Source: Octopus sinensis (Eukaryota). Taken from it: a DNA stretch of 64,000 bases. The stretch's first letter is position 1, and each line of letters begins with the position of its first letter. Position numbers and translations under genes: made by a program. The notes under the pieces were generated by a model that saw nothing but the letters and a program-made list of their open reading frames with translations, searched no databases and had not been told where the DNA came from. Positions 1 through 29,141 of the stretch are shown in pieces. Where the stretch lies: assembly GCF_006345805.1 (NCBI RefSeq), contig NC_043001.1, positions 56,110,001 to 56,174,000 of the forward strand, given 5' to 3'.

Positions 1-118
1 AACCTAGTTTTTATTCTATCAGTAACTTTTGCCGAATCGCTAAGTTACGGGGACGTAAATACAACAACATCGGTTTTCAAGCGATGGCGGATGGAGACAA
101 ACACAGACAGACACACGA

Positions 119-173
<55 letters not shown>

Positions 174-363
174 ACACACACAAACACACAAACACATACA
201 CATATATACGACGGGCTTCTTTCAGTTTCCATCTACCAAATCCACTCACACGGCTTTGGTTTGCCCGAGACTATAGTAGATGACACTTGCCCAAGGTGCC
301 ACGCAGTGGGACAGAACCCGGAACCATGTGGTTGGGAAGCAAGCTTCTTACCACACAGCCATG
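1..363 (-). mobile_element. tRNA-derived SINE, family A (CORE-like, internal microsatellite), 3' end cut by window edge
   Basis: Minus strand starts GGCTGTGTGGTAAGAAGCTTGC (A box), then GGTTCTGTCCC (B box) and CACCTTGGGCAAGTG (CORE-like motif). Internal (AC)n. Matches more than 12 other copies in the window. Confidence 0.85.
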
Positions 364-592
364 CTCGACCTATTTTAGAATATGGAACGCTTATCCTTGC
401 GCAGGATGTGATATTCAAGTGATGTGAATATATAGTATATATATATATATATATATAACAGATGTATGTCTATTATATATATATATATATATATCATTTA
501 TGTATACATATATATATATTGTGTATATTATTTAGTTTATATATAATATACAAATATGAATTTATATATCTTATATATACGATACACGCACA

Positions 593-636
<44 letters not shown>

Positions 637-789
637 TAAATATATATATATATATCATATACACATTAGATAATCATGAATGTAGATCCCACTCTCTCTC
701 TCTCTCTCTCTTTGTGTATATTTATATACATACATACATATCAGCATATCCATGTGCATTAACAAAATGCCATTTTGGAATGACATCCA

Positions 790-985
790 TCATTGTGACC
801 AACAAGAGGCCATTCACCTAAGTTATTTATGAAGCGATGCAACAAACAAGCTTACAAAGAGACTGCAAACCGCCTCAGACAGGATCCATACAAACTGGAA
901 TCAATTAATTAACTAAAGGAGGTTGCTGAGTCGAAGACAACCAATCAATTGAAGAACACACTTGATAGATATTGGAAGAACATTC
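790..985 (+). mobile_element. CR1-like LINE ORF2 C-terminal remnant
   Basis: Manual translation of frameshifted pieces gives TRGHSPKL...KRCN...NWNQL...EVAESKTTNQLKNTLDRYWK, matching the CR1-type C-terminal pattern TRGH.KL...WN.L...FK..LD. Confidence 0.6.
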
Positions 986-1289
986 AATATGTAATGCGTT
1001 TCTACTATGGAGAAAAGGTGCATTAAGAGCAAAGTTGGATTTCTGTGTTTTTTTTATCGTTATCTTTATCAGCTATTAGATTGAAAAGTTTAAAAAAATA
1101 CTATTAACACAATGCCGAACATATATAAGCATACAAACACATAAACATACAGCGGTGTAAATGCAGAAACCAGCTCAAGTACACGGTTAAAGTTAGGAAG
1201 AAGGATCGAAAGTATCTAACGTCATCAGCTAACAAACAGTTAAGTGAAATTGTGTGAGAGAAATGGCAGAGGATCGTAACAGAACTAAC

Positions 1290-1327
<38 letters not shown>

Positions 1328-1698
1328 ATGTATATATATATATACACATATATATATACATATGTTTGTGTATATATTTGTGAGTATGTGTACATGTATG
1401 CGTGTGATTGTGCGCATAGATGTATACGAATGTATGTATGTATGTATGTATGTATGTACGTATGTATTGTAATTTATTTTCTTCTGACAACGGAACTGAT
1501 GTTCTACTCGTTGAGTACAAACACATTCGAACACACCCACCCATTCACAGATACAGACACTCACTCATGTGCATGTGTGTGTGTGTGTGTATGTGTATAC
1601 ATAAATATACATATATATACATATACATGTATACATATATATGTGTATGTATATTCATATACAAACAGACACACACACACGCATATCTACGCATATAC

Positions 1699-1748
<50 letters not shown>

Positions 1749-1784
1749 TATATATATAACAGATGTATGTCTATTATATATATA

Positions 1785-1826
<42 letters not shown>

Positions 1827-2399
1827 GTATACACATACATATATACATACACACACACACACACACATATAAATATAAATGCATATATGTCATAGACAGA
1901 AAAATTTTAAAGGTTGTTATTATCGCGACTCGATTTTTTTTTCTTTTCCTTCTTCGATGACTCATTCTTTAGACATCATGAACAAAATAAAAGAATTTCA
2001 GATAGCATGAACGAACTAAAAGATATAAAAGAAAATTTTGATGTTGAAATAAATATATTGGAATGAAATAATCTGTTTACTTTGGAAGTGTTCATAAAGA
2101 CACGGAAATGAATATTTTAAAATGTCGGCGATTTTGATTTTGTTGTCCCTATACATAGACACACACACACATACATACATACATACATACATGCATACAT
2201 ACACACATACATACATACATACATACATATATACATACATACATACATACATACATACATACATAAATACATATGTACATATCTATTTGTACACACACAC
2301 ACACACACGCATATATATTTGTCTGTATGTGTGCATATATGAATATTTTTTTTATTAATGTCATCATCATGATTAACTTGATCATGAGCACGATCCTAA

Positions 2400-2468
2400 T
2401 CACATCACGATCATCATCAGCACCAACACCACTTCCTCCACAACCATCACCAGCACCACCAGCACCAT

Positions 2469-2499
<31 letters not shown>

Positions 2500-2912
2500 A
2501 CCACCACCACCAACGTCACCGCCGCCGCCGCCGCTGCCGCCACCACCGCCGCCACCACCACCACCACCACCACCACCACCACCACCACCACCACCACCAC
2601 CACCACCACCACCACCACCACCACTACCACCAACACCACCACCACCACCGCCACCACCGCCATCAACGCCGCCGCTACCACTACCAACGTCGCCGACACC
2701 ACCACCATGATAGCCACTATCATGATTGTCACGACCATTATTATAATCGTCACCTTGCTCATGACGATGACGATGATGATCTTCATCACGCTTACCATTA
2801 ATATCACCATCGTCACCATCGTCGTCATCATCACCGTTTTCGTCTCATCACCATCATCATCATCATCTTCACCATCATCATCATCGTCTTCATCTTCCTC
2901 ATGATCATCATC
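2400..2912. repeat. Compound (CAT/CAC/CCG)n trinucleotide microsatellite
   Basis: Directly visible. Explains the poly-Pro and poly-Val ORFs. Confidence 0.9.
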
Positions 2913-3740
2913 AAAGTTGTTGATGACAGTACGGTTAAATTGTTTAACATAAATGAATAAATAAATAAATAAATAAGAAATTATGAATAACTAAAATAAA
3001 TAAATAAATCTAGTCTCGCAGCGTTAAGTTCCGACCCTTTACAAATTTTGCTTTCATCGTTCGAAATAGATAAAATTAAAGCACCAGTCAAATACTGGCA
3101 GAAGCGGATTTCGATTTATATTCCTACAAAGCATTTTAGATGTAATTGGAATTATAATAGAAGAATTTGTCTATCATCCCCTCCAAGGGGCCGATAAAAT
3201 GGAATACCAATTATGTACTGGATCGATATAATCGACTAAAATCCTCTATCAAAAACTGTGTCATTGTGTCTATGCTCGAAATCGATAATCTCCCTCACCT
3301 CCTCATCGCTTTTATCATCATCATCATCAAACAGGAGGGAAAATTATTTTATGATATTGTGTTGATTATATATACAAAAGTCAAAATCCCTTATTAACTC
3401 TTCAAGTATTTTCAATTTCAGAAATAATAATGATCATGATCATAAGAACAACAAAAATAGTCCTTTCTACTATAAACGCAAAGCCTGAAATTTGGGGTGG
3501 ATAGTCGATTACATTGACCCCAGACGGGTAGTCATGATGGGTATTCTAGGCTTTATATATTTTACCCCAGTGTCACTTTTGATGTCATACACTGCTCTCT
3601 CACTTATCATTATTAATAATAATAACAATAATAATAACAACAACAACAATAACAACAACAACAATACTACTACTACTACTACTACTACTACTAATAATAA
3701 TAATAATAATAGCAATAATAATAAGAAGAAGTTGAAGAAG

Positions 3741-13400: not shown

Positions 13401-13525
13401 ATATACATACATACATACGTACATACATATATACATACAAATAAACACACACACACATATATATATATTTCTCCACGTGCTGTTACACAACCCAACCATT
13501 TTAACTGACTTATACTTATATATAT

Positions 13526-14385
13526 AATTATAGATAAGGGTATCTAAGAGATACCATCGTGCTTGAAATTGCAGTCAAAACCTGACTCTAAAACCACATC
13601 ATGTATTCAATACAGCACAAGGTGAAAAGAGAAATAGATAAACTAATGAACACTATCTTTTCACCTTGTGCTATATTGAATACATGATGTGGTTTTAGAG
13701 TCAGATTTTGAGTGCTATTTCAGGTATGGTGGTATCTCTTAGATACCCTTATTTATAATTTTAAAAATATTTATAACCTATAAGGCTTTTTCTTTCCATG
13801 CTGCCACTTGATTTGATCGTTATTTAAATTACGATCTTATCCTTATTTAAATAGAAATTTATATATATTTACTTTGTCATTATATTTACAACGGTGGTAT
13901 TTCGACCATACAAGCACATGGTGTTTGAACGGATAACTGAACTGGTCGTGTATATACGTGCATACTGAACTGGTTGTGTATATACGTAAGTATTCGCATG
14001 CTTGTGTGTATATATATATGTAATTATTTACAATTCTTGGTATATTTCATTGACGAAGGTAAACTATTTTTATACAGAGCCAGCAACCCAAGGTTTGGAA
14101 TTATCCAATTTCCACTAGTTTATCTGTGTTTACCTTGTGGTGTATTGAATACATGATGTGATTTTAGAGTCAGGTTTTAACTTCTATTTCAATCATGGTG
14201 ATATCCCTTATTTATAATTTTAATAATAACCTATAAGATATTTTTCTTCTCATGCTGCCACTTGATTTGATTGTTATTTGAATAACGATCTTATCCTTAT
14301 GTGGTGGTTTAATAAAGTATGCGATTGAGTATTATCTGGTAATTGATATTTAATTTAGATGTATTTCTCCATTTTCTTATCTTGT
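13526..14385 (+). mobile_element. Penelope-like pLTR remnant with inverted and direct terminal repeats and a degenerate hammerhead
   Basis: Inverted arms 13526-13630 and 13656-13760. Direct second copy at ~14130-14300, preceded by a hammerhead-like motif at 14045-14100. Embedded in (TA)n. Confidence 0.6.
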
Positions 14386-19820: not shown

Positions 19821-20415
19821 CGAGGGTGAGTCTAAAAGTAATACCATTTTGTTTAGAATAGGCATAATTACCAACACAGGAACATGTGTATCATGCATCA
19901 AAATGAAGCTGATCCTCACAAGAACATGTATCATAGATCAAAATGAAGCTGGTCCGCTGTGGATCACATCCCTACTTCTCAACATAGTCACCGTTTTTCT
20001 CAATAGCAATGTTCCACCTTCGGATGAGAGCATGTAAAATTCTGCCATGTAAAATTCTGCTGACTGTTCTTTCAGCCACTTCTTCACTACAGTTTTCACT
20101 TCCACGTCACAGGAATAATGTTTGCCTCTCAAACCCTCTTTCATGGGGCCGAAGAGATGATAGTCCAGTGACGAGGAAGTGAAAACTGTAGTGAAGAAGT
20201 GGCTCAAAGAACAGTCAACAGAATTTTACGGGGCAGAATTTTACATGCTCTCATTCGAAGGTGGAACATCGCTATTGAGAGAAACGGTGACTATGTTGAG
20301 AAGTAGGGATGTGATCCACAGCGGACCAGATTCATTTTAATCTATGATACATGTTCTTGTGTTGGTAATTATACCTGTCCTAAACAAAATGGCATTACTT
20401 TTTGACTCACCCTCG
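19821..20415. mobile_element. Palindromic mariner-derived non-autonomous element made of two opposed transposase 3' ends
   Basis: TIR TA|CGAGGGTGAGTCTAAAAGTAAT ... ATTACTTTTTGACTCACCCTCG. Arms encode mariner C-terminus: DYHLFGPMKEGLRGKHY..EVKTVVKKWLKEQS.EFY and RWNIAIERNGDYVEK*. Confidence 0.88.
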
Positions 20416-24559: not shown

Positions 24560-24848
24560 GGTGCAAGAAAATGTTTAAGAAGATATGAAATACAGAGTGA
24601 AGTGGGAGAATAAAAACAGACGTGAGATACGTACAGATACTGTATTTGCAGTACCATTATTTAAGCAGAATGGTGTATATATAAGTTTTATCTCATTTTG
24701 TTAATTTTTATATACATGGTTGCTAATACACGATCTACATTGGACTCCTCATTCGTATCATTATCGAAGTTGGAGCTTAACTATTGTCTGTCCATAGCAC
24801 TCAACATTACCTGATACCTTTGGGTCTTCTTAACACCAATACCTCTCA

Positions 24849-24897
<49 letters not shown>

Positions 24898-24903
24898 CAT
24901 ACA

Positions 24904-25480
24904 CAGAGATGCAGGAAGTAAATATACACCTTTAGTTTTCAAAATTTCTGCTCTAAGCGTCTTAATATGTTTTCAGCGGTGTAGAATTTACAATTATTCT
25001 TTTTCATTCCAGGTTTCAAGGTGCCATTCTATTAAACATGTGCGAAGTGTAAGTATGCTACGCACAAAAAATTCAGCACAGCTGTCAGATTTTCCAAGGG
25101 GTCGTATTGTTGGGCAATCTGAGGCTGATCTTAGCCAGCGAAAAATTGCCGAAAATCTTAAAATTCCTCTTGCTACTCTTAATAGAATTATAGTGCGATT
25201 CAAAAGCCAAGGAAAAGAATCAACAGATTCTCGTGCCGGCCAACCTGGGTTCTCGGAAAGGAAGCTTCGCTGTTTGAAGAGAATTGTGGAAAACGAACCC
25301 CGTTCGACAGCTTCTGACATTGCAAAACAGCTAGAAGTTAGTCCCAAAACGTGTGTTACATATTTGCATATTCTTGGGTATTATGGACGAGCAGCTAGAA
25401 GAAAACCTCTCCTTTAAGCAATTAATATCAAATAAAAGATTTTGAAAATTAAAGGTGTCTATTTACTTCTTGCATGTGTG
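24904..25480 (+). mobile_element. Internally deleted Tc1-family transposon retaining the paired-like HTH region
   Basis: ~40-bp TIRs (ATGCAGGAAGTAAATATACACCTTTAGTTTTCAAAA and its reverse complement at 25440-25480, then TA). ORF 25040-25417: LSDFPRGRIVG..SQRKIAENL..GYYGRAARRKPLL. No DDE domain. Confidence 0.88.
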
Positions 25481-27574: not shown

Positions 27575-27942
27575 ATATATCAACTCTTGCACTCGGACTG
27601 TTCGGGATTAGCCCGAGTATAAATTTAGTAAAGTGAACGTATATTTGCAAACTGATTTAATTTCTACCCTTAACTTAGAAATAGAGAAAGACATAGTGCT
27701 AGATATAAAAAAATAATAATAATAAGCTATTCGGAAATAGAATTTTTGCGGAAAAACGTGAAATTCTTCGAGCAGGCATGTGTCTTGCGCGAAATCTGTG
27801 ATGAACCCGAAGTGACGCTGATGACATGGAATCGTCTCTTTATAATCATATCAAAGGGAAATGGAAATTAATTAAGATTTACATTTCCAGTGGTCTAGCG
27901 TGTAAAAAATTTAGTCTAAAAGTCTATATATTAGTCATACGA

Positions 27943-28373
27943 TATAGTGTGTATTTAAACTCAAAAGGAATCCACTTATAGGAATTCAACACGCTAGAAA
28001 GAACAGCTAGGTTCTATAACCACAAAAATTAAGGATAAAATTCAACAGGAACGAAGGACTGCGGCTGAGCAGTAGATTTTGAAAAAGTTAGGACGTATAG
28101 ACACAGGGGAAGTAGTTTTAATCGCCCCGTGTGTATACGTTTAACCCTAGGTGGTCCTGCTGAAGAAAATTGCACCTGGCGAGTTCCTTGACTCGCTAAA
28201 CTAAAATCAGAAACCAATTGGTCTAGGAAATTAGATGGTAAAATGTTTTTTATTTTTCATTTCGTTCCTGTCGAATTTTATCCCTGATTTTTGTGGTTAT
28301 AGAACCTAGCTGTACTTTCTAGAGTGTTGAATTCCTATAAGTGGATTCCTTATGTGTTTAAATATACACTATA
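27943..28373 (+). mobile_element. Penelope-like non-autonomous element: ~113-bp inverted terminal arms around a hammerhead
   Basis: Arms 27943-28055 and 28261-28373 are reverse complements. Followed by (TA)n. Confidence 0.72.
28155..28228 (+). ncRNA. Type-I hammerhead ribozyme, intact core, extended stem II
   Basis: TCCTG|CTGAAGA|...TGGCGAGT/ACTCGCTA hairpin...|GAA|ACCAATTGGT|C|TAGGA. Palindromic stem III, GUC triplet, predicted cleavage after 28223. Confidence 0.78.
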
Positions 28374-29141
28374 ATATATATATATATATAATATATATAT
28401 ATAATATATATATATATGAGTTACCTTTCCGTTCCTGTAACTTAGAGTTTGGGCTAAATAGATGCCGATAAAATAAAAGTGAGTAAATGGAGTAGTGGAG
28501 CTCTTTCAACAGTACCGCTTTATCATGGTCAACTCCCCCGCCTCCTCCTTATCATCACCAACCACAAGGACTTATTCAACTGCAAGAAATTGAAAGCAGA
28601 ATACTTCTGTAGACAAACAAAGTAAATAAACTAAAAAAATACTACTGTGGATAATGTAGTGTTAGAGCCCTTACATTTGACAAGCTCATGGTTGGAAAGC
28701 TGTCACTCCTAGGCCTGCACTACTGGGGATGTCCCACATCATCATCATCATCGTCGTCGTCGTCGTCGTCATCATCATCATTATCATCATCATCATCATC
28801 ATCTTCATCATCAAGAAGAAGAAGAAAAAGAAGAAAAAGAAGAAGGATAAGAAGAAAAAGAAGAAAAAGAAGAAAAAGAAGAAGGATAAGAAGAAAAAGA
28901 AGAAGAAAACAACAAAAACAACAGCAACAACAGCTTGGTGACTGTGATAGGAATCAATAAACTGAAGCTATGATATATTATTACTATGATGATGTCATAA
29001 CGAAATTGAAAACTGACTCCCCTTTTCTCTCTTTCTTTCACTTTCACACGCACACATAATCACGTAGAAACACGCGCGGACTCTACAACTCAGTTTATAC
29101 ACTCTCACAATTGAATACACATATATATTCTGACTCGAGGG

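Follow-up and report, generated by a model that had tools for sequence, protein, structure and literature searches.

Metazoan non-LTR retrozymes have been described by Cervera and de la Pena (2020, PMC7229834) and in a preprint by Li, Clavereau and Pollet (bioRxiv 10.64898/2026.07.22.740005). As far as the available portions of these reports go, they consist of a non-coding AT-rich unit of about 220-390 bp with one type I hammerhead per monomer, occur as dispersed monomers and tandem multimers, and have been proposed to depend on Penelope-like elements (PLEs). PLE insertions themselves, according to the accessible part of Craig et al. (2021, PMC8557442), feature an inverted 5'-truncated copy, a tail on one side and a bias towards (TA)n, and the PLE tail is bounded by two internal reverse transcriptase start sites (Frangieh et al. 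2024, PMC11167929). The qualitative picture of the PLE layout is already published. PLE hammerheads are known to have one additional nucleotide between A9 and G10.1, along with an extended stem II and a stem III that is palindromic (PMC4209133; PMC6765202). For hammerheads at large, the sections seen of Perreault et al. (2011, PMC3088659) put on record a 10.1-11.1 mismatch (U·U) and stem I-II pseudoknots in about 40%, and have standard filters rejecting 10.1-11.1 mispairs.

The locus described here lies in a 64,000-nt stretch of Octopus sinensis DNA, referred to here as the window. A sequence-only reading had reported two inverted arms at 27943-28055 and 28261-28373, and these were recovered as 113 nt each, 93% complementary, around a spacer of 205 nt (BLAST E 3.5e-44). 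Of the limits given for the element, the right end at 28373 held while the left limit at 27943 did not, as the left arm extends 100 bp further to 27843, and the whole element is an asymmetric 531 bp (27843-28373). Alignment with other copies shows it to consist of two 5'-truncated segments of an ORF-less ~484-bp repeat unit, fused head to head, with the following parts and neighbours.

27656..27839, forward strand: older, unrelated repeat, copies of which normally terminate in a TA/CA microsatellite
27843..28055, reverse strand: inverted 5'-truncated arm, monomer 372-484 plus 1-100 (= 372-584), terminating at B, the distal of the two fixed 3' ends
27843..27933, reverse strand: ~90-nt tail between both fixed 3' ends, found on the inverted arm only and absent from the first reading
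28052..28055, no strand: head-to-head junction microhomology CGAA, 4 nt, where the two arms overlap
28052..28373, forward strand: forward 5'-truncated arm, monomer 163-484, ending ~10 nt before the usual proximal end A
28370..28418, no strand: (TA)n target microsatellite at the right end of the element

Both arms aligned without gaps to the majority sequence of their subfamily, with 9 differences over the 213 nt of the inverted arm and 14 over the 322 nt of the forward arm, which enters (TA)n at its 3' end, and each arm was shorter than one unit. The 113-bp 'TIR' is simply the stretch common to both fused pieces. The insertion site was the microsatellite that usually trails the older repeat at 27656-27839, and the window copy is a single decayed insertion that is probably inert.

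Flank alignment showed the ~484-bp unit to be circularly permuted, the sequence that follows the 3' end of some copies being that which precedes the 5' end of others. A genome search with the 431-bp query gave at least 118 matches from the best 40 of 1477 candidates, most of these matches spanning just query positions 110-431, and a 23-mer of the tail had 118 exact matches in the genome. A pattern of the core plus stem III matched 186 times against 0 in the control, and a core-free pattern 163 times against 6, some of these matches not being hammerheads. The family can be put at hundreds of copies in about 9 subfamilies. Loci L083-L085 held tandem hammerheads 494-505 bp apart with nothing but the unit in between and no ORF, so that tandem non-coding units with a type I hammerhead each, as in retrozymes, were present at the family level. 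An ORF for RT and GIY-YIG was not found as part of the unit: arms continued into the preceding unit, and no linked ORF was seen. One near-full-length head-to-head insertion was observed in three segmentally duplicated blocks (G000:C15 66.85-66.97 Mb; L012, L021 and L036).

The unit thus resembles metazoan non-LTR retrozymes in its non-coding AT-rich sequence, its single type I hammerhead per monomer and its occurrence as dispersed monomers and tandem multimers. It is longer (484-505 bp), most insertions are shorter than one unit, and 66 of 143 insertion groups are head-to-head. The link to PLEs also differs in kind, being drawn from insertion anatomy here and from co-occurrence and pLTR phylogeny in bioRxiv 10.64898/2026.07.22.740005, where the available text lacks the word 'tail' and has 'inverted' in the reference list only. 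Literature searches found no publication on the unit family, and supplements of related papers may list such repeats. We classify the family as a retrozyme-like, non-autonomous Penelope derivative.

Insertion anatomy was compared across 208 loci, which yielded 177 insertion records in 143 groups, 77 with a single orientation and 66 head-to-head. Two of the 66 were removed as duplicates to leave 64 fusions for the end analysis; this removal was heuristic, some segmental duplicates may remain and a few of the A end calls are loose. Two fixed 3' ends were identified ~90 nt apart, A at about position 494 and B at about position 584. The single-orientation insertions (n=77) ended at A in 39 cases, at B in 31 and elsewhere in 7. 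Fourteen of the 64 fusions had a truncated or unassigned end and fell outside the A/B count, and the 50 that could be classified had one A and one B outer end in 47 instances, two A ends in 2 and two B ends in 1 (binomial p 2e-11 vs 0.5). Paired arms among the 47 A+B fusions ranged over ~24-365 bp (median 103), two negative values stemming from gapped cases. Junctions placed by BLAST boundaries (n=64) had a 1-8 nt overlap in 33 fusions, abutted in 5, overlapped further in 3 and showed gaps in 23. A (TA)3+ run adjoined 159 of the 185 assignable family ends. Only one of the 47 fusions was clearly outside a microsatellite (locus L066), and its ends carried a 14-bp direct repeat, the one target duplication visible; in most of the 47 fusions microsatellites would hide any such repeat. 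Arms longer than 590 nt were rare (17/209), and those longer than one unit require a multimeric or circular template.

These patterns bear out the suggestion of a Penelope-type insertion, since arm length varied among copies, ends were fixed at two 3' sites only and the hammerhead core was conserved between subfamilies. The marks of PLE mobilisation were present, namely two fixed 3' ends with an optional tail at one insertion end (47/50 A+B), 5' truncation, partial tandems, an inverted 5'-truncated copy and microsatellite targets. The layout had also been equated with a pLTR preceded by an inverted copy of its own 3' end; the inverted copy stands, and in place of a pLTR cut from a known autonomous element there is a free-standing non-coding monomer. 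A proposal that 5' ends are set by the predicted ribozyme cut site was rejected, with 9 of 128 breakpoints in monomer 330-340 and up to 15 in adjacent 20-nt bins, and self-cleavage would therefore leave insertions unmarked. Three copies that start near monomer 317 with a common flank are probably duplicates.

Agreement with EN+ PLEs extended to 5' truncation, partial tandems, an inverted 5'-truncated copy and a tail at one end (PMC8557442, in the part available), and to two internal RT start sites with a hammerhead upstream and (TA)n or AT-rich targets (PMC11167929; PMC8557442, same part). In contrast to these PLEs the unit lacks an ORF, and its tail measures ~90 nt where 30-40 bp are reported. 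Start-site use did not differ by strand in vitro (Frangieh et al., PMC11167929), whereas the two-armed genomic insertions here used nearly strictly one site of each kind.

A protein-coding control was available in the same genome. A decayed RT-GIY-YIG ORF beside one unit copy (L076) led to a younger PLE family (L133-L138) with open RT+GIY-YIG frames of up to 907 codons. The domains of this long-ORF PLE were RVT_1 followed by a C-terminal GIY-YIG, both weak and below cut-offs (E 4e-4 and 9e-4), and a relative of 57% identity passed the GIY-YIG cut-off. The whole frame had no Pfam match at 1e-3 and no meaningful PDB match. All six copies fetched had one forward and one inverted end in (TA)n and a ~57-nt tail on exactly one end, so the one-of-each rule is valid for a protein-coding PLE in this genome. 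Apart from an independent unit insertion in L136, the unit shared no sequence with 36 PLE loci of the two PLE families, and the long-ORF PLE is thus a control and not a proven partner. A protein search with the L076 PLE fragment likewise returned no autonomous partner sharing unit sequence. Because no such partner was found, the mobilising enzyme is named from the insertion signature alone. The L133-L138 elements also had inverted 5' copies and a hammerhead-like 3' motif with an altered A9 position. The L076 element (1-3100) is a decayed RT+GIY-YIG PLE of an older family with more than 100 related matches at 57-92%, and near 2965-3085 it contains a separate hammerhead-like motif, in which stem II is very long.

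The forward arm of the window element contains a putative ribozyme, the features of which are given below.

28155..28228, forward strand: type I hammerhead motif, predicted cut after C28223
28155-28159/28224-28228, forward strand: stem I, 5 bp with one G·U
28160-28166, forward strand: core CUGAAGA, read in sequence
28167, forward strand: extra A that follows the core
28168-28171/28205-28208, forward strand: basal stem II, first pair A·C in the window copy
28177-28184/28191-28198, forward strand: distal stem II hairpin, 8 bp, read in sequence
28209, forward strand: second extra A, directly before GAAA
28210-28213, forward strand: GAAA, read in sequence
28213-28222, forward strand: palindromic stem III, read in sequence
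28149..28177, forward strand: predicted pseudoknot of AGGUG (28149-28153) with CACCU (28173-28177), formed between the 5' leader and the internal loop of stem II

The GUC ending at 28223, the 5-bp stem I, the palindromic stem III at 28213-28222 and the 8-bp hairpin were all present as the sequence-only reading had them. Its description of the core as intact was right for the 12 core nucleotides and wrong for the base of stem II, where an A·A apposition is followed by an A·C mismatch (28168 is A in this copy and G in the subfamily). Rfam reported no hammerhead in the window at the gathering score, and at E up to 10 gave none at this site and two chance matches. The majority sequence of the subfamily folded without constraint into the hammerhead at -26.1 kcal/mol, while the predicted fold of the window copy was another one (-21.5 vs -13.3 kcal/mol for the hammerhead). 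The ribozyme of the window copy is probably impaired or damaged.

Conservation was assessed in 119 distinct copies of about 9 subfamilies, about half of them collected with a core-requiring pattern. The type I core C3 U4 G5 A6 N7 G8 A9 / G12 A13 A14 A15.1 / U16.1 H17 was present in order, and between the nine subfamily majority sequences changes occurred at 0 of 12 core and 45 of 98 other positions, with N7 taking A, C or G. In 63 copies chosen with no core requirement the corresponding values were 0/12 and 26-27/98 (p about 0.03). At the level of single copies the core decayed at close to the rate of its surroundings (28/708 vs 361/5883 differences; 36 of 59 cores intact), which is expected if selection acted on source elements alone. 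Compensatory stem II pairs were seen in 48 aligned copies (G-C/A-U 29/13 and C-G/U-A 24/22), and 91.8% of basal stem II cells could pair vs 23-46% in slid controls; sequence relatedness inflates these covariation counts, and 20 of 500 shuffles matched the number of covarying pairs. RNAalifold, run blind, recovered stem II and its compensatory pairs but not stems I and III, preferring a hairpin over the cut site. Stem III was almost invariant and stem I shifted register.

As in PLE-type type I hammerheads, a palindromic stem III suited to dimer cleavage is combined with a short stem I, a long stem II and an extra nucleotide after A9 (Cervera and de la Pena 2014, PMC4209133). Two features set the motif apart from those: a second extra A before G12 (118/119 copies), which places A·A or C·A in apposition, and the division of stem II into two parts, with an internal loop that is likely paired with the 5' leader. 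No Watson-Crick pair closes stem II beside A9 and G12; at its base an A in 91 and a C in 24 of the 119 copies faces an A found in 118, and pairing begins one position further out. In 11 of 69 copies the first stem II pair was likewise A·C, among them a branch of another subfamily that has propagated, and one subfamily had a stem I of just 3 bp. The noncanonical stem II base, the A·C variants and the 3-bp stem I mean that the fold may be under relaxed selection. Among 69 parsable copies, 65 retained the variable pair of the pseudoknot (as G-C in 28, U·G in 25 and U-A in 12), although its 5' change aligns as an insertion; a leader-to-stem II pseudoknot is likely. The second extra A before G12 was not found in the literature, including the portion seen of PMC10085705, and Lunse et al. 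(2017) may already cover the variant. A pseudoknot-hammerhead structure considered as a precedent for an A·A-capped helix was rejected, as that ribozyme retains G10.1-C11.1 in the part consulted (PMC11300833). Taken on the comparison of subfamilies, the hammerhead has likely been kept functional in source elements.

Other hammerhead-like motifs were observed in the genome. Two unrelated ones (L098 5978-6053; L099, G000:C8 27341546-27341610) have the same stem III palindrome and different stems. A branch with an extra U in stem III (e.g. G000:C4 138890375, C5 40480137 and C10 66153899) loses the palindrome but gains a 4-bp hairpin, a change that might promote folding as a monomer. In two copies U4 is replaced by C.

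The explanation in which we place high confidence is that the family is a protein-free ~484-bp unit with a type I hammerhead motif, likely pasted in by a PLE RT/GIY-YIG enzyme acting on unit RNA. The enzyme would nick the two strands of an AT-rich target at points separated by a few bases; from one nick cDNA would be primed at the distal start site, and from the second at the proximal start site. Target-primed reverse transcription would start inside the RNA, at both tail ends, as in the Anolis Poseidon element (PMC11167929). The two cDNAs would stop at variable points and then join via short microhomology, and the 'terminal inverted repeats' would be no more than the overlap of the two cDNAs. 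The hammerhead would probably cut multimeric transcripts to unit length, as a dimer. A more specific version is possible and we hold it tentatively, with more doubt than belief: PLE integration would be an asymmetric twin priming in which a single enzyme dimer primes each target strand at a different fixed site of one RNA, always one of each kind and not at random, so as to yield the head-to-head 'inverted repeat'. The template here would be a retrozyme circle cut by an active hammerhead variant with an A·A/C·A base of stem II, rescued by the leader-to-stem II pseudoknot and rejected by standard searches.

The locus had been said to look like a MITE, which would make it a non-autonomous DNA transposon with 113-bp TIRs and a chance hammerhead-like string. 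MITEs are short and non-coding with inverted ends, and the unit insertions share all of this, together with long inverted arms, TA-rich flanks, the absence of an ORF and a target duplication in one copy. Fixed-length TIRs with identical ends in all copies were not observed, however: paired arms varied over ~24-365 bp, outer ends were unlike (A vs B), 77 of 143 groups had no inverted arm, 5' ends were ragged and tandem direct arrays exist. The variable arms refute the MITE reading, to which we give practically no chance. An inversion made after insertion, by DNA fold-back or recombination and not during reverse transcription, fares barely better. Junction microhomologies are equally typical of DNA repair, and the two arms of an insertion were closer to each other than to random copies (median rank 0.05, 38 fusions), but folding back a single arm cannot account for outer ends that are both fixed and unlike each other, as found in 47 of the 50 classifiable fusions, and either arm can be the one that reaches further upstream (27 vs 19, one tie). 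Rare alleles common to both arms were seen in 6 of the 38 fusions, a weak signal for single-RNA origin, as subfamily structure or gene conversion could explain them as well.

Two further alternatives keep the PLE in the picture. The unit copies might be detached pLTR or 3' fragments of an undiscovered autonomous PLE, since truncated PLE insertions yield equally two-armed, tailed, (TA)n-flanked pieces; dual motifs that lie 100-700 bp from each other on opposite strands are noted in PMC4209133, and our comparison covered a portion of the pattern matches. Arms that were long enough nevertheless continued into a preceding unit copy and never into an ORF, tblastn of the PLE protein against 172 non-PLE loci and the window matched L076 and L097 only, and the L076 ORF runs into a separate 3' region that belongs to it, about 2 kb ahead of the unit, which makes this origin improbable. 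Greater weight, amounting to a sizeable minority chance, is given to a PLE-mobilised unit whose hammerhead is a non-catalytic relic or a protein-binding structure that owes its conservation to something besides cleavage. The noncanonical stem II base, the propagated A·C variant, the weak stem I of one subfamily and the competing hairpin are in its favour, and in PMC11167929 hammerhead mutants had no effect on insertion in vitro and RNA-seq read ends were absent at the cut site. It has to contend with the finding that the catalytic positions are exactly those invariant between subfamilies while N7 is variable.

On the preferred reading of a PLE-mobilised unit, insertion anatomy provides the link between a retrozyme-like unit and PLE machinery, and an autonomous element of this genome serves as the control. 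The use of different start sites for the two priming events of an insertion is now quantified (47/50 for the unit and 6/6 for the long-ORF PLE). Current in vitro work gives no explanation for this constraint, and the ~90-nt tail offers a minimal RNA with which to probe it. If the motif cleaves, descriptors that require a 10.1-11.1 pair overlook whole families. For annotation, caution is warranted as PLE-type head-to-head insertions resemble MITEs.

Unit-family sequence was carried by assembled contigs of sequencing runs guessed to be RNA, none of which is recorded as RNA, and contig data of this kind cannot show editing, RNA ends or strand. A junction like that of L003, another two-armed copy (L003 1396-1940, G000:C29 near 11.862 Mb), appeared at a depth of 122-325 in guessed-RNA contigs (three of four runs; two studies), and no piece bridged the window junction among the contigs listed. 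According to the sequence-only reading the window element, if transcribed, would give a long dsRNA, a putative ADAR or Dicer substrate; for work on dsRNA and editing L003 is more promising than the window copy. The two base differences listed, at 28168 and 28178, are no evidence of A-to-I editing, being subfamily alleles that also turn up in a large run of unknown type, which is probably DNA. Short introns that the unit might contain, judged by eye, had no matching joint in the guessed-RNA contigs.

The surroundings of the element are repeat-rich, in a genome of 2.7 Gb. A gene scan of 41 of the 101 longer frames in the window had as its sole find a Tc1-like transposase fragment (24815-25414; HTH_24, HTH_Tnp_Tc3_2). 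A second long inverted repeat at 19917-20361 (~445 bp span, 89%) overlaps a Tc1/mariner-like frame read by eye at 19941-20225, and another self-match of this sort lies at 13510-13776. The older repeat at 27656-27839 had at least 40 copies, ~80% identical, out of 1171 candidates, with a fixed end before TA/CA microsatellites. Close to its terminus a CUGAUGA motif is preceded by an upstream GAAA, which might represent a permuted hammerhead within a further element that targets microsatellites. In locus L217 a diverged tail of the ~484-bp unit family was located at the same spot of this older repeat.
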